From: Escherichia phage vB_EcoS_ACG-M12
Sequence record: NC_019404.1
Length of the DNA: 46,054 bases
Strand: one strand, 5' to 3'
Position 1 is the first letter of the stretch, and each line of letters begins with the position of its first letter. Below, piece by piece: positions 3,581 to 41,040 of this stretch. A model generated the notes under the pieces. It had not been told where the DNA came from. It saw nothing but the letters and a program-made list of their open reading frames with translations, and ran no database searches. A program made the translations under genes and the position numbers.

Positions 3581-3763
3581 ATGTGGGATGTTAAGTTATC
3601 TATCAGATTAATGGGTCGCAGTTGCAAGAATTGCACTCAAGAGTACATCGCGTCAGTTGCCGCAATCAGCGCTGAGGATGCGGTAGCGAAAGTAAAGGAT
3701 ATGTCGGGCGCTGACCCTGACACCCATAAATTCCTAGTAGCTTACATTCGTGAGCGAAAGTAA
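3581..3763 (+). CDS. hypothetical protein (60 aa)
   Basis: ATG with SD AAGGAG; followed by a terminator. Confidence 0.45.
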   Translation: MWDVKLSIRLMGRSCKNCTQEYIASVAAISAEDAVAKVKDMSGADPDTHKFLVAYIRERK

Positions 3764-3809
3764 AAAGTGTTATACCCTCGTTTAATTTTCATCTCTCTCT
3801 CGTTGTTTT

Positions 3810-3834
3810 AGCCCTCGCTTGAGGGCTTTTTTTC
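3810..3834 (+). terminator. rho-independent terminator
   Basis: Hairpin AGCCCTC-gctt-GAGGGCT followed by a T7 run. Confidence 0.7.
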
Positions 3835-3844
3835 GTCTGTAATA

Positions 3845-3853
3845 TGCTATAAT
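3845..3853 (+). promoter_or_regulatory. extended -10-like element TGCTATAAT upstream of terS
   Basis: TGn-TATAAT about 24 bp upstream of the ATG at 3877; no dyad box. Confidence 0.4.
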
Positions 3854-3876
3854 CTAGCCTCAACAAAGGAGGATTT

Positions 3877-4383
3877 ATGAGTAAAGCAGCATTAAAGCTA
3901 GGTGGAGGAAACTTTAAGACCCTATACAACAAGAAGTACGGCGACATTGCCATGGTGGCAGTTAACCGAAAGTACACGCCGGAAGAGGTGTTTGATTTCG
4001 CTGTGAGATACTTCACTTGGGCTGAAGGTGAGGCAATAAAAGCAATTGAAACCGCAGCATTCCAGGGAGTTGTTAGTGAAAACCTTATCCATAAACCGAG
4101 AGTCTTCACCTTAACTGGTCTAGCTTTGTTTATTGGCGTTAAGATCGGTAGCTTTGCTCGCTGGCGTTCAGAGCCTGGGTACTCTGACGTGATGGAGTTT
4201 ATTGATAACGTAATCTATGAGCAGAAATATCAGCTTGGCGTTGCAGGTATTATCAACTCTACCATCGTTGGTAAGGAGTTAGGCATTGATAAGCCGCAGG
4301 AAATTACCATTAGCAACAACTCAACAGCTAACGACGTTGATAGCATGAAGGAAGCGCTGGAATCCGTGATTAGTAAGCTATAA
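3877..4383 (+). CDS. terminase small subunit (168 aa)
   Basis: Immediately upstream of the large terminase; SD AAAGGAGG; small oligomeric-type protein with a TLTGLALFIGV-like segment. Confidence 0.6.
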   Translation: MSKAALKLGGGNFKTLYNKKYGDIAMVAVNRKYTPEEVFDFAVRYFTWAEGEAIKAIETAAFQGVVSENLIHKPRVFTLTGLALFIGVKIGSFARWRSEPGYSDVMEFIDNVIYEQKYQLGVAGIINSTIVGKELGIDKPQEITISNNSTANDVDSMKEALESVISKL

Positions 4384-4400
4384 CAATACGAGGGTATAAC

Positions 4401-5969
4401 ATGTCTTTAGTATGGGAAGAGATGACCATTCAGGAAAAGATGGCTGTCAAGGCGATATCAGAGCATAGTTTTGAGGGCTTTTTAAGGTGTTGGTTTTCAA
4501 TAACACAAGGCGAGCGATACATCCCTAACTGGCATCACAAGTATCTTTGCCGAATTATCGACGAGATTATTGCCGGGGAGCGCAAGGACACTATCATCAA
4601 CATAGCGCCCGGTAGCGGTAAGACAGAGATCGCTTCAATCCATTTCCCAGCCTACTCAATGGTTAAGCTGAAGAAGGTGCGAAACCTCAATATATCTTTT
4701 GCCGACTCACTGGTAAAGCGCAACTCCAAGCGCGTGCGTGACCTTATCAAGTCACCAGAATTTCAGTCGCTTTGGCCTTGCAAGTTTGGCACGTGCAAGG
4801 ACGATGAGCTTCAGGTTCTTGATGAGAGCGGGAAGGTTAGGTTTGAGTCAATATCAAAGGCGGCGGGAGGTCAGATTACTGGCGCTCGTGGTGGCTATAT
4901 AACCGAAACATATAGCGGGGCCGTCTTATTAGATGATTTTGACAAGCCCGCAGATATGCTATCAGCAGTCTACCGAGCAAATAACCATGTAATGCTAAAA
5001 AACACAATTCGCTCCCGTCGTGCGAGTTCTGTAAAGGGAAAGGCAACGCCAATCATTTCGATACAGCAGCGATTGCACGTTAATGACTCAACCTGGTTCA
5101 TGATGGAAGGTGGGATGGGTATCGAATTCGATTTGATTAAGATACCAGCGTTGGTAACTGAGGATTACCTAGACACACTACCTGAATGGATTAAAGAACA
5201 GTTTGAAGAGGATGTCCTTAGTAGTGAATACATAGAGCGCGATGGAGTAAGGTATTACAGCTACTTCCCTAAAAAGGAGTCAGTCAATGACTTGGTTGCG
5301 ATGTGGGATAGTGACCCTTACACCTTCCTTAGTCAGTATCAACAAGAACCAGTAGCTCTAGGTGGCAACCTTATTAACGTAGATTGGTTCCAGCGCCTTA
5401 GCGACACGTTCAGACCTCCCGCTAAGTACGATTATAGATTTATAACTTGCGATACAGCTATGACTACAAAAAGTTATAGTGACTTCTCTGTCCTTCAATT
5501 GTGGGGTTATAAAGATGCTAAGATTTACCTTATTGACCAGCGCAGGGGGAAATGGGAAGCGCCCGAGTTAGAGGCAGAGTTAATCGATTTCGAGAAGAAA
5601 TCAAGGGCAACCAGTCAATCGGATGGTATCCTCCGAAAGATTATCATCGAGAAGAAAGCATCTGGAATCGGACTCATTCAATCAGCAAGTCGAGTCATGA
5701 GAACGCCAGTGGAACCTTATGTTCCTGATAATGACAAGTTAACAAGGGTGATGAGTGCGCTGCCACAGATTAAGGCTGGTAACGTAGTTCTTCCTGAGTC
5801 TGCGCCGTGGTTAAGCGGATTGCTTACTGAGATTGCGGCATTTACCGCTGACGACAGCCACAATCACGACGACCAAATTGATACCATGACAATGGCTATC
5901 AACCTGGTTCTGAACATTGCGGATGACCCTAAGGCGAGACTAATGCGCATAGCGGGAATAATAAAATAG
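4401..5969 (+). CDS. terminase large subunit (522 aa)
   Basis: Walker A IAPGSGKTEIAS in the N-terminal ATPase; size and position; acidic C-terminal nuclease-like region. Confidence 0.85.
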   Translation: MSLVWEEMTIQEKMAVKAISEHSFEGFLRCWFSITQGERYIPNWHHKYLCRIIDEIIAGERKDTIINIAPGSGKTEIASIHFPAYSMVKLKKVRNLNISFADSLVKRNSKRVRDLIKSPEFQSLWPCKFGTCKDDELQVLDESGKVRFESISKAAGGQITGARGGYITETYSGAVLLDDFDKPADMLSAVYRANNHVMLKNTIRSRRASSVKGKATPIISIQQRLHVNDSTWFMMEGGMGIEFDLIKIPALVTEDYLDTLPEWIKEQFEEDVLSSEYIERDGVRYYSYFPKKESVNDLVAMWDSDPYTFLSQYQQEPVALGGNLINVDWFQRLSDTFRPPAKYDYRFITCDTAMTTKSYSDFSVLQLWGYKDAKIYLIDQRRGKWEAPELEAELIDFEKKSRATSQSDGILRKIIIEKKASGIGLIQSASRVMRTPVEPYVPDNDKLTRVMSALPQIKAGNVVLPESAPWLSGLLTEIAAFTADDSHNHDDQIDTMTMAINLVLNIADDPKARLMRIAGIIK

Positions 5970-33750: not shown

Positions 33751-35745
33751 ATGCTTCCCGTAGAAAAACTCGTTGCTAACTTTGATAAGAGTCGCCTTGC
33801 AGAGATTAAGCGTGATTACTCATTTGGTGAGATAACTCCTTACGACTTTCAATGCGTGACATTTGATGCAATTGGTAAAGCAATTGGCAAGTACGAAGCT
33901 CCATTTATCGCAGACCTTTCTGTATCTGCAGGTAAGACAATCATCTTGGCGATGATTGGTAAGAGAATGGAGCAACTCGGCCTTCCTTATATGGTTCTTT
34001 CTCGCCAGTCAGAGATAGTTAGCCAGGATAGCGAGGAGCTTCGTAACTTCGGTATCCGTAATAGCGTATATTGCGCTGGCCTTAACGTTAAATCAGTTTA
34101 CTACCCAACCATAGTGGCAAGCGAAGGAACGGCAGCTAATGGGTTGTTTAAGGGACTTGGTGACTATGTTCCGGCAGTTATCGCTATAGACGAGTGCCAC
34201 ATGGTGGATCACATGGATATAGTCGAAGCAGAAGAGAACGAAGAAACGTTTGAGCAAATGAGCACCGCAAAAGGTGAGATGGTTTTCAAGGATGGTGAGT
34301 ATACTGGCTTAACTGGTACAGGTCGTTCGCAATACACTTTAATCATTACAGAGATGAAACGGCGTTGCCGTGAGAAATACAAGCGCGAACTACGCATCTT
34401 CGGTCTTACTGGTAGCCCGTATCGCGATAACAATCATATCGTGGTAAGCAACCAAAATATTCGAGGATTTTGGCGTAAGACGGTTATGCAGGTTCCAACT
34501 AATTACCTGGTGGATTTAGGGTTTGTTGTCCCAACCGTTTACGGTGAGGTTGGTGATTTGGGTTATGACCTTGCTGAGTTTACGCCAGATGGTTCTGATG
34601 GGGTTAAAGACTTCACGAAGAAAGACCTGAATGCAATGGAGGAGAAGATTCACCAAAGCCAATCTATGACACAAAAGATTATGCAGTTCGCAGCTAAGTT
34701 TATGGAGACGAGGAACGCAGCACTTGTTACCTGTTCCGGTAAGCGTCATTGCGAAGAAGCAGCCGCCGCTCTTCCTGAAGGTGTAACATGGGCTATAGTA
34801 ACCAACTCAACAGGCGAGAAGAAACGCCGTGAGATTCTAGCTGACGCATCTGAGGGTAAGTATAAATTCATCTTTCAGATTGGTTGCTTAACGACCGGTG
34901 TCAATGTCCCACCGTGGGACACATCAATAATTCTCCGTAAGGTTGGCAGCATTACATTGCTTATTCAGCTTTTGGGTCGTGGCATGCGCATCCTGAAGAG
35001 GAAACATAAAGAGATGGGAATGGTTAAAGATGACCATGTGGTATTGGACTTCGCAGGCACGCTTGATGATATGGCTGAGTTGTACTTTGACCCAATCATA
35101 GAGGAGGTTCAAGACCAGAAATTCAAGTCTTCTCGTAAAGGTGGTGATGATCCAAGAGTGTGCCCAGCATGTAGCTATGAGAACTCGCCATTTGCTCGTC
35201 GTTGTAATAATTTTATCGACGGTAAAAGGTGTGAGCACTTCTTTCAGTTTCGTACTTGTGATGACATTGAAGACCCACAGACAAAGGTTATATTAAAGAA
35301 GGGGTGTGGCGAGAAGAACGACATTGCTGCCAAAAACTGTAGATGTTGTGGTGAGATGTTAATTGACCCTAATGCAAAACTTTCCGGCAAGATGTACCGT
35401 CAGGGGGATTGGTTGCGAGTTTACGGATTTGGCATTGGTTTAACAAAGAATCAAACTGGCATAGTTGCCCGTTACGAAATCATGGCGCATAGTGGTCAGA
35501 AGTTCATTGCATATGAAACATTCTTTCCAGAAAGTGACCATCGAGTTTGCTCTGTTAAGTGGAAAGCATTTTGCCAGACTCACATACAGAACAAAACAGA
35601 GGCTTTTAGGATTGGTCGCTTGCGTAATGCGAAAATGATAATGACAAATGCCAGCCAGTTCCGTGAGCCAATGCGAGTGACTCATAGAAGAAATCAGAAA
35701 GGCCGGGATATTATAGCTAATAAATCTTTTACTATGGAGGATTGA
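33751..35745 (+). CDS. SF2 DNA helicase with C-terminal Cys-rich zinc-ribbon region (664 aa)
   Basis: Walker A SVSAGKT, DExH box IAIDECHMV, motif VI-like QLLGRGMR; multiple CxxC pairs at the C-terminus. Confidence 0.7.
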   Translation: MLPVEKLVANFDKSRLAEIKRDYSFGEITPYDFQCVTFDAIGKAIGKYEAPFIADLSVSAGKTIILAMIGKRMEQLGLPYMVLSRQSEIVSQDSEELRNFGIRNSVYCAGLNVKSVYYPTIVASEGTAANGLFKGLGDYVPAVIAIDECHMVDHMDIVEAEENEETFEQMSTAKGEMVFKDGEYTGLTGTGRSQYTLIITEMKRRCREKYKRELRIFGLTGSPYRDNNHIVVSNQNIRGFWRKTVMQVPTNYLVDLGFVVPTVYGEVGDLGYDLAEFTPDGSDGVKDFTKKDLNAMEEKIHQSQSMTQKIMQFAAKFMETRNAALVTCSGKRHCEEAAAALPEGVTWAIVTNSTGEKKRREILADASEGKYKFIFQIGCLTTGVNVPPWDTSIILRKVGSITLLIQLLGRGMRILKRKHKEMGMVKDDHVVLDFAGTLDDMAELYFDPIIEEVQDQKFKSSRKGGDDPRVCPACSYENSPFARRCNNFIDGKRCEHFFQFRTCDDIEDPQTKVILKKGCGEKNDIAAKNCRCCGEMLIDPNAKLSGKMYRQGDWLRVYGFGIGLTKNQTGIVARYEIMAHSGQKFIAYETFFPESDHRVCSVKWKAFCQTHIQNKTEAFRIGRLRNAKMIMTNASQFREPMRVTHRRNQKGRDIIANKSFTMED

Positions 35746-35746
35746 A

Positions 35747-36166
35747 ATGAAGATTACAGATAAAGAAGATTACATTGAGTTTTACCCGGGTGCTGTAAAA
35801 TCATGTCCAAAGGAGGATGACGAACAAATCTTTTGCTCTGATTGGGTTAAGTACCATTATCCGCAGATTGTTTACTGGCACACGATTAATGAAAATAAGA
35901 AGACCATAGGGCAAGCAAGAAAAGACCAGGCGAAAGGACTCCTTAAGGGCGTATCAGACTGCTTATTCCTGATACCTGAATCAATGCGAGGCAAATACCC
36001 TTTTGGAGCCATAGAGCTAAAGAGGGCAGGAAAAACTCAAGCAAGCCCTGTCAGCGATGAACAAAAGGTTTTCTTAAAAAGCGTAAGGGAATCAGGCGGT
36101 TTCTCTGCTGTAGCCTACGGTCGCGAAGGTTTTCTTGCAGCATTCAAAGAAATGATTTCAAAATAG
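35747..36166 (+). CDS. VRR-NUC domain nuclease (139 aa)
   Basis: D...E-x-K arrangement (SDCLF...GAIELKRAGKTQ...Q) characteristic of VRR-NUC as recalled; coupled to the helicase. Confidence 0.5.
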   Translation: MKITDKEDYIEFYPGAVKSCPKEDDEQIFCSDWVKYHYPQIVYWHTINENKKTIGQARKDQAKGLLKGVSDCLFLIPESMRGKYPFGAIELKRAGKTQASPVSDEQKVFLKSVRESGGFSAVAYGREGFLAAFKEMISK

Positions 36167-36242
36167 CACGAATTGCTAAAGAAGATTTTAAAGGATGGGG
36201 TATAGTTACTCCATCGAAACGAAACGCAGAGAGAGAAACAAA
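36162..36242 (+). promoter_or_regulatory. conserved intergenic cassette (AATAGCACGAATTGCTAAA ... GGTATAGTTACTCCATCGAAACGAAACG)
   Basis: Box overlaps the stop TAG of the VRR-NUC gene; TATAGTTAC at 36201-36209. Confidence 0.55.
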
Positions 36243-36440
36243 ATGGCTACTATCTATACAGGAATCAACTACGAGTCACGCAAAACTGGTTACATCTACG
36301 AGCTAGTCGTTACTGAAGATGGTTACATTCTCGAGGATATCGACGACTCAAATTACGCATTCGAAGTTACCCCAACATACAAAGATGATTTAGAAACTGT
36401 TAAAAACGCATTTGGCGAAAAATTTGATGAGGTATCATAA
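36243..36440 (+). CDS. hypothetical small protein (65 aa)
   Basis: In-frame ATG after AGAGAGAGAAACAAA (track start is upstream, inside the cassette). Confidence 0.4.
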   Translation: MATIYTGINYESRKTGYIYELVVTEDGYILEDIDDSNYAFEVTPTYKDDLETVKNAFGEKFDEVS

Positions 36441-36598
36441 TGAGAGAGGCAATCGTAAACTGGAAAACCGGAGAAGATTCAAAGTTCTTCTTCAATACAT
36501 TCTCACAATATATTGACAAGTTTGTTTTCGTGATTGATGGTGGATGTGAGGTTGTTGTTCCAATTAATCTGGTTGATGTATTGGAGGTATCAGAATAA
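36440..36598 (+). CDS. hypothetical small protein (52 aa)
   Basis: TAATG overlaps at both ends; below the track cutoff. Confidence 0.35.
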   Translation: MREAIVNWKTGEDSKFFFNTFSQYIDKFVFVIDGGCEVVVPINLVDVLEVSE

Positions 36599-36819
36599 TG
36601 GCAATTTTTACATTTGAGAATCAATGGGAAGTATTTAAATTAATGGCAGTCCAGGAGCTAAAGAAATCTGGGTATAACAAAAACCCATGGGACTTAGTAT
36701 TTTGTCTTGACATGAGCTTTGAAGAAGACTACCTGAATACCGACATCGAAACATGGCGCGACCGCATGGTTGCTGATATCGAAGAAATGAAGAAAGATTG
36801 CCATGAGGATTTCTTATGA
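36598..36819 (+). CDS. hypothetical small protein (73 aa)
   Basis: ATG overlap-coupled. Confidence 0.4.
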   Translation: MAIFTFENQWEVFKLMAVQELKKSGYNKNPWDLVFCLDMSFEEDYLNTDIETWRDRMVADIEEMKKDCHEDFL

Positions 36820-37016
36820 TTAATAATAGACCGTTCGTTGTTACGTTTAAGCCAAGAAACAACACCCCACGGATGGATATTGATGAGTACCTTCTGAAAC
36901 GAGGAAATAGCTATTTTGTTCTTGAAATTTCAGCAGACTCAGATAGGTATATAGTAAAAAACGATGCTGGTATTGTTGTTAGTGTTTCAAAATTGGATGT
37001 GGAGATTGTGAGATGA
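36816..37016 (+). CDS. hypothetical small protein (66 aa)
   Basis: ATGA overlap. Confidence 0.4.
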   Translation: MINNRPFVVTFKPRNNTPRMDIDEYLLKRGNSYFVLEISADSDRYIVKNDAGIVVSVSKLDVEIVR

Positions 37017-37207
37017 TTAATGCAACTTGTGTAAAAGCAAATGGTTCCTTTACTCTACTTGAAGATTACGAAATTATCTTTAATTCAGATGGTGCAATAA
37101 CAGTATTAAGCGATGATGGATGCTATTGGTTCGTTAGTTATCAAGGTGATGGGTATTACGGGTGTAGAGATTCTAATGGAAAAGAAGTTAGCTTCTTAGT
37201 AGAATAG
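37013..37207 (+). CDS. hypothetical small protein (64 aa) with YQGDGYY motif
   Basis: Shares SYQGDGYY with gene 40864 (AEYQGDGYY). Confidence 0.4.
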   Translation: MINATCVKANGSFTLLEDYEIIFNSDGAITVLSDDGCYWFVSYQGDGYYGCRDSNGKEVSFLVE

Positions 37208-37277
37208 CATTTTTTGTTAAAACTAAAATCCACGGATGGATTATATTAAACACATCAACAGCGCAGAGGATTGAGAT
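37203..37277 (+). promoter_or_regulatory. conserved intergenic cassette (AATAGCATTTTTTGTTAAA variant)
   Basis: Box overlaps the stop TAG of gene 37013; GGATTATATTAAACACATCAACAGCGCAGAGG. Confidence 0.45.
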
Positions 37278-37403
37278 ATGAAAATTGTAGACAAAGAGAT
37301 GTTCGAAATTGCACAGACCTATGCAAGTGACGCAGTTAAAACAGGCTCAGAATATTGCTGGATGTGTGCTAAAGAATACCTGAAAATGGCTTACGGATTA
37401 TGA
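37278..37403 (+). CDS. hypothetical small protein (41 aa)
   Basis: ATG after GAGGATTGAG; ATGA overlap with the next gene; below the track cutoff. Confidence 0.3.
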   Translation: MKIVDKEMFEIAQTYASDAVKTGSEYCWMCAKEYLKMAYGL

Positions 37404-37648
37404 TCGTTGAAACCGGACGCGCCGCAGTGTGGGCTCATTGTGGAGAGGCTGGATTGCAAGATGACATTAAGCAGATATCTAGATTCTTTGATATAAAAGA
37501 TATCAGCGTCGTGTTCAATGGCAAATTCTCTTACATGGATGAGCGCCCAAGAAAATACGTAAGAGTTAAGCCAGGCGTCAGGATTGATGTTAACGAGTTC
37601 CTTAAATCTGAGGGATTCAAGTTTAAGATAACGAAGCCTAAGGATTGA
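37400..37648 (+). CDS. hypothetical protein (82 aa)
   Basis: ATG, overlap-coupled. Confidence 0.4.
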   Translation: MIVETGRAAVWAHCGEAGLQDDIKQISRFFDIKDISVVFNGKFSYMDERPRKYVRVKPGVRIDVNEFLKSEGFKFKITKPKD

Positions 37649-37902
37649 GTATGTTGGGTTTAGATTTTCAGCCAGAGCATTACGATTTAGTATATGGTCA
37701 AAGTGGTGCAAAGTTTAGAGCGATACCTATTGCTGATTGGTTCCCTCCTGATTATGTGGATGTGAACGCAAAAACTAAAGACGGGAAGTGGGTTCAGATT
37801 TACTACTCCCCAGCATGCGGAAACCTTTGTATGACTGACATTGATCAGAAATTAGCAATTAGTGCGGAAGTTATAGACTACTGGTTGAAAGAAGTTGAAT
37901 GA
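37645..37902 (+). CDS. hypothetical protein (85 aa)
   Basis: ATG, overlap-coupled. Confidence 0.4.
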   Translation: MSMLGLDFQPEHYDLVYGQSGAKFRAIPIADWFPPDYVDVNAKTKDGKWVQIYYSPACGNLCMTDIDQKLAISAEVIDYWLKEVE

Positions 37903-37985: not shown

Positions 37986-39122
37986 ATGGCAACTGCAAAA
38001 ATTACCAACGAACAGCTTCTTGAAGAGCTGATTAACGGCATGACCAACAAGGCCATTGCAGAGAAGTACGGAATGAACATTCGCAATGTTGAGTTGCGTC
38101 GCAGTAAATTGGCGAAGCAGGGTGAATGGCATGGAAACCCAGGCATCAAGAAGCTAGTTCCTGACGGTTATTTGGTCAAAGGCACATCAACGATGATTGA
38201 TGCCGAAGGTAACGAAAAGCTGCGCTGGGTTAAAACATCCGTAGATAATGAGCGCCTTGAGGTTTTAATGGAGCAAGCCCGAGAAGCATTCTGCTCTGAT
38301 TTGCCAAAGGCTATTCCATCTGAATCACCGAATGTTAACTTTGATGACAACACGCTTGCGATGTATCCAGTCTTTGACTTGCACATTGGAGCAATGGCTC
38401 ACAAACATGAGTGTGGCGAAAACTACGACACAGAAACAGCAGAGAAGGTTATGAATGGTTTCTTTGACTACGCTGTAGATAAGGCTCCGAACTCAAAGAA
38501 TGCCGTGCTTGTTCTTGGTGGTGATTTCTTGCATTACGATTCATTAGAGGCAAAAACACCAGCGTCAGGCCATATCTTAGATTCTGACAGCCGTTACGCA
38601 AAGATTGTTTATGTCGCAATCCGTTCAGTGCGACGTGCAATTTCTAGAATGATGGAAAAGCATCAAGTTATTGATATTAAAGTAATAAGTGGAAACCACG
38701 ACGAGGCAGGGATGGTTTGGCTGCGCGCTGCGCTTGCTGCGTTTTATGAAGATGAACCGCGCGTAAATGTTGATGTTAGCCCAGCCGCAATGATGATGAC
38801 CAGCTTTGGAACTACGCTTATTGGATACACCCACGGGCATCAAATGCGAAAAGCAGATACGCGACTAACTGTTATGGCAACCGATTTTCGTAAGTTATTT
38901 GGTCAAAGTGAGTATGTTTACACACATAGTGGCCACTGGCATTCGCAGAAGATTACAGAAACAAACTTGGGTATTGATGAGGTTCATGGGCAGCTTGGAA
39001 GCCCTGACGCGTACTCAGCAAATGGCGGATGGCGCTCTCAACGTCAAGCGGCGGTTATTGTCTACCATAAAGAATTCGGTGAAGTTGGCCGCTTCATTTG
39101 TCGCCCTAAAATGTTTGGATAA
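37986..39122 (+). CDS. metallophosphoesterase (calcineurin-like) with N-terminal HTH-like domain (378 aa)
   Basis: DLHIG (DxH), GGDFLHYD (GDxxD), GNHDE (GNHD/E), later HGH and GHWH motifs; N-terminal NKAIAEKYGMNIRNVELRR helix-turn-helix-like. Confidence 0.6.
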   Translation: MATAKITNEQLLEELINGMTNKAIAEKYGMNIRNVELRRSKLAKQGEWHGNPGIKKLVPDGYLVKGTSTMIDAEGNEKLRWVKTSVDNERLEVLMEQAREAFCSDLPKAIPSESPNVNFDDNTLAMYPVFDLHIGAMAHKHECGENYDTETAEKVMNGFFDYAVDKAPNSKNAVLVLGGDFLHYDSLEAKTPASGHILDSDSRYAKIVYVAIRSVRRAISRMMEKHQVIDIKVISGNHDEAGMVWLRAALAAFYEDEPRVNVDVSPAAMMMTSFGTTLIGYTHGHQMRKADTRLTVMATDFRKLFGQSEYVYTHSGHWHSQKITETNLGIDEVHGQLGSPDAYSANGGWRSQRQAAVIVYHKEFGEVGRFICRPKMFG

Positions 39123-39193
39123 TAGCACATTTTGTTAAAACAGTAGCCGCGAAAGCGGCTATTATTGTTTTATACAAACGGGAGGGGATTTAA
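39121..39193 (+). promoter_or_regulatory. conserved intergenic cassette (AATAGCACATTTTGTTAAA variant) containing hairpin TAGCCGC-gaaa-GCGGCTA
   Basis: Precedes the HNH gene at 39194. Confidence 0.45.
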
Positions 39194-39764: not shown

Positions 39765-40238
39765 ATGATTTACGTATTTGATATCGATGGAACTATAGCT
39801 AATAATGAACATAGAAGTCACCTCTTGCCATACAGTGACCTTCACTTGACTTCAAGTTGGAAGGATTACAATAAAGCCTGTTCTGGAGACTCACCAATAA
39901 TCCCAATGATAAACATGATGAACAAACTTGCGGAATTATGTCAGGTTTACATTATGACCTCCAGAAGTGATGAAGTTGAATGGAGAACACTTGAGTGGCT
40001 TCAGGATAATGAGGTTGAGTATGATTCGATATACATGAGAAGTCGACATGACAACCGAAAAGATTACAAAATAAAAGAGGAATGGCTTAATGAAATCAGT
40101 GGTGGCGATAAAAGCAATGTGGTTATTTTTGAAGATAACCCACAAGTAATTAAGCACCTAAGGAGTTGCGGATACACCGTTATGGCCGTATGTGAATATG
40201 AAGAACTACCTAAAGATTGCGAATCTCACGGAGAATGA
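39765..40238 (+). CDS. HAD-superfamily phosphatase (157 aa), possibly a 3'-phosphatase or nucleotidase
   Basis: N-terminal DxDGT motif (VFDIDGTIA) and a later acidic motif, consistent with a HAD fold. Confidence 0.5.
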   Translation: MIYVFDIDGTIANNEHRSHLLPYSDLHLTSSWKDYNKACSGDSPIIPMINMMNKLAELCQVYIMTSRSDEVEWRTLEWLQDNEVEYDSIYMRSRHDNRKDYKIKEEWLNEISGGDKSNVVIFEDNPQVIKHLRSCGYTVMAVCEYEELPKDCESHGE

Positions 40239-40240
40239 AA

Positions 40241-40795
40241 ATGACTAAATTATTTATCCTTAATGGCCCCGCTGGAGTTGGTAAGGATACTATAGCGGAT
40301 ATCATGGTTGAGACTGGTGTCGCCAAAGAAAAGGTATCATTCAAGTCACCAATGTTTAACGTTGCTAGAGGTATTCTTTCAATAGATGAATTCGATTGGT
40401 TTATTGAAAACTACAACAATCGCGACGAGAAGGAGAAACATCAGAAAATTCTAGGTGGAAAAAGCATTCGAGAGTTCATGATCTGGATTAGCGAGTCTGT
40501 AATGAAGCCAGTCTTTGGTGATGATGTTTTTGGTAAAAGGCTCGCCCAGTCACTTAGTGATGGTTGCTACATTTGCGCTGACGGTGGATTTGCTAGCGAG
40601 ATTAAGCCACTGATCGACGCTGGTGTTGAGGTCACGTTAATCAGATTGCATAGGGCGGGGCACACATTTGATGGCGATAGTCGCTCATACATTCACGGGG
40701 TGTGCGCAAGAGAAATTGATGTTCGTGTTGTTGGTGGTGATATTGATGGAACATCAGCATTGGTAAGGCACGTAATAAATAGCACTAATTGCTAA
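40241..40795 (+). CDS. P-loop kinase, dNMP-kinase-like (184 aa) ending ...NSTNC
   Basis: KLFILNGPAGVGKDTIADIM resembles the T4 gp1 dNMP kinase N-terminus (from memory); ATG directly after the HAD gene stop; C-terminus encoded by the dyad box. Confidence 0.5.
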   Translation: MTKLFILNGPAGVGKDTIADIMVETGVAKEKVSFKSPMFNVARGILSIDEFDWFIENYNNRDEKEKHQKILGGKSIREFMIWISESVMKPVFGDDVFGKRLAQSLSDGCYICADGGFASEIKPLIDAGVEVTLIRLHRAGHTFDGDSRSYIHGVCAREIDVRVVGGDIDGTSALVRHVINSTNC

Positions 40796-40863: not shown

Positions 40864-41040
40864 ATGACTAAAATGATTTATTGCACCAAGAACAACTCCA
40901 AGACGCTTCCATTTACAGTTAACCAGCCGTACAATGCAGAGTATCAGGGTGACGGATATTACAAGATTTACGGAGACGATATGACGTGGATTTTAGCACC
41001 GATTGATGGTTCGCTTGTTGAATTTATTATCGCAGAATAG
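40864..41040 (+). CDS. hypothetical small protein (58 aa) with YQGDGYY motif
   Basis: In-frame ATG after ACGAGGAAACACAAG; paralogous motif with gene 37013. Confidence 0.4.
   Translation: MTKMIYCTKNNSKTLPFTVNQPYNAEYQGDGYYKIYGDDMTWILAPIDGSLVEFIIAE

Follow-up and report, generated by a model that had tools for sequence, protein, structure and literature searches.

The cluster considered here consists of eight very small open reading frames (ORFs; 41-83 amino acids, aa) on the plus strand at positions 36243-37902 of the sequence record NC_019404.1, the 46,054 nucleotides (nt) of Escherichia phage vB_EcoS_ACG-M12, which are referred to as the window throughout. This phage is a virulent Rtp/T1-like coliphage (Drexlerviridae, Braunvirinae, Guelphvirus) with a genome of 46,054 bp. 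The ORFs, designated o1 to o8, were located with an ORF list and the raw sequence, and their products are exact matches to ACG-M12_0052 to 0059, every one of which is annotated as a hypothetical protein. Much of the locus is already known: the genes are annotated, the repeat cassette in front of them is published, and the feature is of a familiar type, an ordinary small early phage gene cluster. What is new is the division of the cluster into a conserved block (o3, o6, o7, and o8) and accessory genes (o1, o2, o4, and o5), the correspondence with phage T1, including an ORF that is unannotated there, and the predicted structural link between o5 and Gp54 of phage Bas11. Approximately half of the genes of T1-like phages are without known function, and the split shows which genes to delete for which question. 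On the 5' side the cluster is preceded by genes for a helicase and a VRR-NUC nuclease, and on the 3' side it is followed by a Mre11/SbcD-type 'DNA repair exonuclease', an HNH endonuclease (according to the annotation of Escherichia virus ECH1) and then a DUF7244 SH3 gene. The 2.5 kb around the cluster are 98.5% identical to ECH1 and 95% identical to vB_EcoS_SCS31, both Guelphvirus, and about 112 phage records have nucleotide similarity to the cluster region.

The features of the locus are listed below. Ratios of nonsynonymous to synonymous substitution rates (dN/dS) were obtained by pairwise Nei-Gojobori comparison with the window at 15 related loci, taken from GenBank phages and IMG/VR, with orthologues found by tblastn; pI is the isoelectric point.

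36161..36181, plus strand: cassette 1, 21-nt repeat aaATAGCACGAATTGCTAAAg, with its pattern copy at 36163; it overlaps the TAG stop codon of the VRR-NUC gene
36201..36222, plus strand: -10-like box TATAGT (36201-36206) and box CATCGAAACGA (36212-36222), downstream of cassette 1
36243..36440, plus strand: o1, 65 aa, pI 4.05, net charge about -10; dN/dS 0.12-0.41; phrog_6031; Braunvirinae only
36440..36598, plus strand: o2, 52 aa, a rare accessory gene; dN/dS 0.12-0.17; phrog_22569; TAATG overlap with o1
36598..36819, plus strand: o3, 73 aa, acidic; dN/dS 0.03-0.36; homologue of T1 gp19 and bas11_0037
36816..37016, plus strand: o4, 66 aa, mildly basic, a rare accessory gene; dN/dS 0.06-0.10 (divergent loci); ATGA overlap
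37013..37207, plus strand: o5, 64 aa, acidic; carries YQGDGYY; predicted six-stranded SH3-like beta-barrel
37202..37247, plus strand: cassette 2, 21-nt repeat gaATAGCATTTTTTGTTAAAA and -10-like box TATATT (37242-37247), with its pattern copy at 37204
37278..37403, plus strand: o6, 41 aa; dN/dS 0.03-0.31; homologue of T1 gp18 and bas11_0038
37400..37648, plus strand: o7, 82 aa, basic (pI 9.4); a core gene throughout Drexlerviridae
37651..37902, plus strand: o8, 83 aa, acidic; dN/dS typically 0.02-0.12; homologue of T1 gp17

The original prediction, made from the letters of the window, had described small genes packed in a dense, translationally coupled run, with the replication genes on one side and the enzyme genes on the other, and this structural description is right. 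The o1/o2 and o2/o3 junctions are TAATG overlaps, the o3/o4, o4/o5 and o6/o7 junctions are ATGA overlaps, and Shine-Dalgarno-like GAGG, GGAG or AAGGA sequences are present upstream of most starts. Its coordinates and overlaps were reproduced, except that it had assigned 85 aa to o8 (within a range of 41-85 aa) and an overlap to o7 and o8. The start of o8 is most likely the ATG at 37651 (83 aa), 2 nt after the end of o7, and not the TTG at 37645 (85 aa), because the TTG start is missing in many relatives and AAGGA lies 7 nt before the ATG. For o1, the start at 36195 in the ECH1 annotation was rejected: it falls within the putative promoter cassette and lacks conservation, whereas 36243 is conserved among the relatives.

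All eight ORFs are coding and under purifying selection. Over the 15 loci their dN/dS values were 0.02-0.41, typically 0.05-0.2 at dS of 0.3-2, and thus well below 1, where the original prediction had named a lack of purifying selection in related phages as the outcome that would count against it. These values are similar in range to those of the flanking VRR-NUC and exonuclease genes. The value of 0.28 for o4 against the near-identical ECH1 derives from two substitutions, and a single outlier of 0.47 for o8 from three substitutions only.

The two cassettes from which the genes had been proposed to be driven are real. The pattern ATAGCAY-N3-TTGYTAAA occurs 21 times in the window compared with 0.73 expected, at sites including 1306, 2116, 5966, 13125, 18846, 27584, 33663, 36163, 37204, 39122 and 40779, and on the minus strand at sites including 25435, 25752, 44831 and 46013. 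When the cassettes are aligned, the repeat is followed by a -10-like TATAGT, TATAAT or TATATT about 22 nt after TTGYTA, often by CATCGAAACGA (6 occurrences in the window vs 0.6 expected), by a Shine-Dalgarno sequence and by a start codon, which genome-wide lies 72-88 nt from the start of the repeat; GGATGGnnTATAnT occurs 5 times vs 0.59 expected. The copy at 36163 precedes o1 by 80 nt and the copy at 37204 precedes o6 by 74 nt, and cassette 2 sits in the 70-nt gap between o5 and o6, a position that also holds a cassette in phages Rtp, Sd1, RobRod40 and JeanPiccard. A 21-nt direct repeat with the consensus aaATAGCACnnnTTGnTAAAA, oriented with transcription and about 76 nt before start codons, has been published for TLS, T1 and Rtp (PMC11447400). 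The window cassettes have the same consensus and the same orientation along transcription, their spacing of 80 and 74 nt compares with about 76 nt in TLS, and the 21 copies in the window compare with 21 in TLS, 18 of which are intergenic (PMC11447400). Both cassettes are therefore copies of the published Drexlerviridae repeat, and no difference from it was seen. The role of the repeat, together with host shut-off, was listed by the TLS authors among the open questions of Drexlerviridae (PMC11447400).

The same 21-nt repeat is found 76 nt upstream of gene 54 of Bas11. Gene 54 is expressed from its native upstream region in uninfected E. coli, and escape mutations in this region reduce expression (PMC11578894). 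Owing to this activity, the two cassette regions of the window are read here as putative promoters for the host RNA polymerase, which would be used early in infection. Within the second group of genes, the interval between o8 and the exonuclease gene contains neither a cassette nor a terminator-like site, and a terminator-like hairpin is predicted behind the exonuclease gene.

37986..39122, plus strand: Mre11/SbcD-like 'DNA repair exonuclease' by annotation, homologue of T1 gp16
39142..39163, plus strand: predicted terminator-like hairpin that would close the o6-o7-o8-exonuclease unit, with a 9-bp stem and a T-rich tail

Based on these signals, o6-o8 and the exonuclease gene would share one transcript, and the likely transcription units are o1-o5 and o6-o7-o8-exonuclease. 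In T1, annotated terminators stand at matching places, after gp21, gp19 and gp16. The hairpin at 39142-39163 lies within a further cassette (39122-39170), between its 21-nt repeat and its -10-like region, so that the end of the exonuclease unit would overlap with the start of the one that follows. A separate short repeat was also noted: CACGGATGGAT is present as exact copies at 36868-36878 and 37231-37241, 363 nt apart, the first inside o4 and the second in cassette 2 directly before the -10-like box; with at most one mismatch it has 4 matches in the window vs 0.55 expected.

The eight genes differ in how they are distributed among related phages, and record counts (tblastn matches among 50,697 phage records) were 136 for o3, 113 for o6, 848 for o7 and 166 for o8, compared with 110 for o1, 15 for o2, 16 for o4 and 179 for o5. 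Within Braunvirinae, o1, o3, o6, o7 and o8 are near-universal. The order o3-o6-o7-o8-exonuclease is kept in T1 and in a 50.8-kb IMG/VR relative (L007), and Bas11 has the same order without o8 (0037, 0038, 0039, then the exonuclease). Synteny had been proposed as a check, and the outcome is that this order before the exonuclease recurs across subfamilies while the other four genes are variable. In T1 the corresponding genes are gp19, gp18, an ORF that is unannotated in NC_005833, gp17 and the gp16 exonuclease: the order and the exonuclease are the same as in the window, but identities are only 27-43%, and T1 has a Dam methylase at the place of o1 and o2 and lacks o4 and o5. In detail, o3 is 27-36% identical to its T1, Bas11 and L007 homologues, and o8 is 32% identical to T1 gp17 and 28% to the L007 homologue. 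The unannotated T1 ORF between gp18 and gp17 is a homologue of o7 (43% identity, E = 7e-17). It extends over about 3735-4000 of the T1 locus used here (L022), that is, about 40235-40500 of NC_005833, and runs over the TTG at which gp17 is annotated to start, so that this start is probably placed too far upstream. Rtp, as rtp55-rtp60, has o1, o3, o5, o6, o7 and o8, which are annotated as hypothetical, as is the case for the block in T1.

Among the block genes, o7 is the most widespread, being present in phages of Klebsiella, Escherichia, Salmonella, Citrobacter and other Drexlerviridae phages. A profile search of 1.84 billion proteins retrieved just 30 representative clusters with no tie to a known family; these are phage-type small proteins, except for two long multi-stretch matches (1,521 and 601 aa) that were taken as repeats or mis-assemblies. 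With 848 records but only 30 clusters, o7 can be regarded as a family-restricted core gene. Its predicted structure is beta-alpha-alpha-beta-beta followed by a basic tail, and no structural neighbour of the model was found. Within Braunvirinae, o7 and o8 retain 82-100% amino acid identity at dS of about 0.2-1.5, and in this they are unlike genes engaged in an arms race.

The gene content between the conserved flanks varies among close relatives for o1, o2, o4 and o5, and not for o3 and o6-o8. Directly after the VRR-NUC cassette lies a slot occupied here by o1 (with o2); T1 and Bas11 have a Dam methyltransferase in it, and L007 has a lipoprotein together with a Dam-like methylase. Neither the T1 and Bas11 Dam enzymes nor the Bas11 Dcm enzyme has a homologue anywhere in the window. 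A second slot, between o3 and cassette 2, contains both o4 and o5 in the window; some relatives have just one of the two there (o5 alone in Rtp), and in others it is empty. For o4, copies with 68% identity occur in Salmonella and E. coli phages of 39-41 kb, and phiEB49 has one that is 100% identical. Homologues of o5 occur in Vequintavirus at 66% identity and in T-even phages at about 32%, in the latter within a small-gene run adjoining the primase gene. Thus o1, o2, o4 and o5 behave as accessory genes: their presence is patchy, they occupy Dam or lipoprotein slots, and o4 and o5 are found in unrelated phages as well. This resembles the phage accessory regions of Silas et al. (bioRxiv 10.1101/2023.04.06.535777), in which variable small genes lie between conserved genes; the flanks here, helicase/VRR-NUC and exonuclease, are likewise conserved. 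In contrast to those regions, the cluster is interleaved with the conserved o3 and o6-o8, and none of the eight genes is named in the main text of that study. Two tandem duplications were observed in passing: JeanPiccard (L014) has two o1 paralogues (2046-2249 and 2366-2560), each behind its own cassette, and phiA2-1 (L016) has adjacent DUF7244 SH3 paralogues (4742-4939 and 4957-5103) with 34% identity. Duplication of small genes seems to be common in these slots.

Concerning the proteins themselves, the statement that they carry no recognisable motifs is correct for Pfam and NCBIfam, in which none of the eight has a domain. All of them fall into PHROG families of unknown function, apart from a weak Kil label for o6, and PDB sequence searches with single sequences or profiles gave nothing significant for any of them. 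Six products are acidic (pI 4.0-5.1); the exceptions are o4, which is mildly basic, and the basic o7. Hydropathy is low in every product, and no signal peptide or membrane segment was seen in the sequences. Structure prediction, which had been suggested as a further check, returned the o7 model described above and a model of o5 that resembles Gp54 of Bas11 (PDB 9AXB): both are six-stranded small beta-barrels with a prominent beta1-beta2 loop, a rare topology. Gp54 is a direct trigger of the fused toxin-antitoxin defence system CapRelSJ46 and is non-essential, and Gp54 homologues with three substitutions fail to trigger it (Zhang et al., Nature 2024, PMC11578894). The two proteins have more in common: both are from Drexlerviridae, are 64-66 aa long and are encoded in a small-gene run behind a 21-nt cassette, and both appear dispensable, since o5 is missing in many relatives and without a start in ECH1. 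Gp54, unlike o5, belongs to a different and oppositely oriented small-gene cluster of its own genome. With Gp54 as query, neither BLASTP nor tblastn gave a significant hit to o5 or to the whole window, and the o5-family profile did not recover 9AXB from the PDB sequences; what the two share is a predicted fold, and membership in one family is not claimed. A Foldseek search of BFVD returned many small uncharacterised Drexlerviridae proteins with the o5 fold (TM score, the template modelling score, 0.6-0.8), and this type of mini-barrel seems, from the models, to be a recurrent theme in the family.

In ECH1 the start codon of o5 is changed from ATG to ATA, and the same change turns the o4 stop codon from TGA to TAA (window positions 37013-37015). 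This explains why o5 is not annotated in the ECH1 record. The change may reflect a sequencing error or mean that expression of o5 has been lost naturally; the loss of the start fits o5 being dispensable.

Taken together, these results lead us to favour, with a confidence a little above even, a reading in which the cluster is formed by two cassette-driven, translationally coupled units, the conserved block stands beside the accessory genes, and the products are small, non-enzymatic and mostly acidic cytoplasmic proteins that act as binders. Each of the two short transcription units would start behind a 21-nt repeat and a -10-like box, and translation within each unit would be coupled via the stop/start overlaps. 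The products of o3, o6, o7 and o8 would probably serve the phage's own early DNA-metabolism programme, and those of o6-o8 may be partners or regulators of the Mre11-like exonuclease, which is the most economical guess because they apparently share a transcript with it. The genes o1, o2, o4 and o5 would be Braunvirinae-specific fillers of two variable slots, gained and lost among close relatives and exchanged with unrelated phages. In this they resemble the variable small genes spread by horizontal exchange which code for counter-defence or host-modulating binders in other phages. Because of the equivalence with the Dam slot, the very acidic o1 and the Gp54-like predicted fold of o5, these four would probably modulate host defence or physiology. 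Most likely, the eight products would act early in infection by binding stoichiometrically to proteins of the host or the phage.

Several points weigh against this reading. Promoter activity and early timing are deduced from one relative and from sequence; a generic sigma-70 scan of the window gave no more sites than expected by chance and none at the two cassette positions, and the 22 nt from TTGYTA to the -10-like box are too long for canonical -35/-10 spacing. Co-transcription of o6-o8 with the exonuclease gene depends on predicted signals being absent. A search of the literature turned up no functional data on the eight genes or their close homologues, and no Drexlerviridae transcriptome or gene-essentiality data covering them. 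The model of o5 is of medium confidence (pLDDT, a predicted score for the local distance difference test, 72) and the protein has no sequence similarity to Gp54, while the model of o7 is without a structural neighbour, so that 'binder' is a default reading for it and not a finding. The conservation of o7 and o8 would also be compatible with a host-directed role. In KanT1, a T1-like phage, DefenseFinder reportedly detects no known anti-defence genes, a result that is silent on genes it does not list.

The original prediction had proposed host takeover or anti-defence for the region. Extended to the whole cluster, this would make it an island with eight products that each neutralise defences of the host or bring about host shut-off, and such an island is unlikely, despite several features that speak for it. 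The genes are small, mostly acidic and without enzyme domains, the region looks early and lies behind putative promoter cassettes, half of the genes vary between relatives, the o1/o2 slot is equivalent to a Dam slot, and o5 has a Gp54-like predicted fold. These features fit, indirectly, a host-directed role for o1, o2, o4 and o5. Against the island as a whole, o7 is present in 848 genomes across the family, o8 and o3 recur across subfamilies in a fixed order before the exonuclease, and the strong conservation of o7 and o8 differs from that of fast-evolving counter-defence genes. Moreover, none of the eight products matched a characterised anti-defence protein (Ocr, ArdA, Gad, Tad, Acr and others) in searches of Pfam, PHROGs, NCBIfam and PDB sequences. 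A more far-reaching proposal, on which we would place comparably little weight, is that o5, the similar Drexlerviridae barrels and Gp54 constitute one fast-diverging superfamily of metamorphic SH3-like mini-barrels that bind and block immune sensors and are detected by CapRel-type sensors, and that, separately, o6, o7 and o8 encode small subunits or regulators of the Mre11-like nuclease. If the former were true, o5 would be an anti-defence protein or the trigger for an E. coli defence system.

For o6, a function as a Kil-like division inhibitor, that is, a short helical hairpin that blocks assembly of the FtsZ ring early in infection, appears rather improbable. It was suggested by a weak match of o6 to phrog_2055 ('Kil protein for bacterial septation inhibition'; E = 3e-4), which 13 of the 16 sequences of the o6 alignment also match (best E = 2e-6). 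Lambda Kil (PF06301), a division inhibitor dependent on FtsZ and ZipA, has 47 aa and is predicted to be helix-turn-helix (PMC11762379), and o6, with 41 aa, has a comparable length and a sequence suggestive of a helical hairpin. Yet BLASTP of o6 against lambda Kil produced no alignment, and none of 15 o6-family sequences matched the Pfam family Lambda_Kil, which lambda Kil itself matches at 2e-20. Lambda Kil falls in PHROGs 3924 and 2461 and not in 2055, MAFFT sets its turn and second helix against the first helix of o6, and the T1, Bas11 and L007 homologues of o6 are longer (63-77 aa), with additional C-terminal parts.

A similarly low probability is given to the idea that the lysis-associated DUF7244 SH3 protein has a diverged second copy in o5, which would work with it or like it, for example in modulation of the endolysin or the cell wall.

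40864..41040, plus strand: stand-alone SH3-clan protein DUF7244 (Pfam PF23896, E = 2e-29), homologue of T1 gp14, adjoining the lysis genes

T1-like phages have been described to encode such stand-alone proteins beside their lysis cassette, and the genes are reported exclusively from the vicinity of the lysis module (PMC13164509). The YQGDGYY motif that had been reported as common to o5 and this protein was recovered as an exact match, 7 of 7 residues. Further residues agree between the families, in an N-terminal C-x-K-x-N...F-T...Y and a C-terminal F-[LI] pattern; the two proteins are small barrels of SH3-like type (in o5 by prediction), weak profile matches to SH3 domains in the PDB were obtained, and hhalign with small locus alignments gave a probability of 61% (E = 8e-5), the sole signal in 36 family pairs. 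With deeper alignments, however, the hhalign result fell to 13.5% (E = 2e-3) with a shifted register. The o5 protein does not match PF23896, only 1 of 29 o5-family members touches the DUF7244 hidden Markov model (E = 0.39), the T-even homologue of o5 is without the motif, and o5 has an extra hairpin compared with the DUF7244 protein. In addition, o5 lies 3.7 kb upstream of the DUF7244 gene, upstream of the exonuclease gene, in a different unit and not by the lysis cassette, and no signal peptide or membrane segment that could take it to the periplasm is apparent. The DNA copies of the motif differ at three synonymous sites, which excludes a recent DNA duplication; distant common ancestry of the two barrels is plausible. 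Matches of the o5 profile to 'Cake' designed propellers in the PDB were rejected as repeat-summed noise.

Least tenable is the explanation that some or all of the ORFs are chance frames in spacer DNA, or that an antisense ORF at 37391-37711 (106 codons) is the real gene: the ORFs are very short, o5 was left out of the ECH1 annotation and the antisense ORF is long, but this is extremely improbable given the dN/dS values of all eight genes, the membership of every ORF in a PHROG family with full-length matches, the Shine-Dalgarno sequences before most starts, the lack of any RNA family in an Rfam search, and the antisense ORF itself, which was rejected as a shadow ORF since stop codons interrupt it in 4 of 14 relatives and its translation shows much lower conservation than that of o7, encoded by the same DNA.

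Some minor observations concern the surroundings of the cluster and the records used. Further on in the same stretch, close relatives carry a polynucleotide kinase (SU57) and a holin (Rtp). The N-terminus of the exonuclease (window 37986-38130, the first approximately 45 residues, including ...MTNKAIAEKYGMNIRNVELRRSKLAKQG...) looks like a helix-turn-helix by its sequence, which would be unusual for such a nuclease. Compared with ECH1, the window has 53 differences in 5.5 kb, and 22 of them are within about 150 nt inside o3 (36651-36804), where dS is 0.77; the adjacent small genes have about 0.02-0.05. Over 35268-37270 the window matches SCS31 letter for letter, with approximately 6-17% divergence on either side, and the genomes of ACG-M12, ECH1 and SCS31 are all exactly 46,054 bp long, with no indels. 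This pattern looks like recombination patches or like reference-guided assemblies based on ACG-M12. Several names in GenBank are doubtful: the o6 homologue of vB_Ec-G8 (41 aa) is called a 'glycosyltransferase', the o5 homologue of 2725-N35 and of phage isim a 'putative minor capsid protein', and the DUF7244 protein of phage ES a 'tail tip protein'. One DUF7244 protein is encoded on a contig labelled Streptomyces lividans, probably through contamination.

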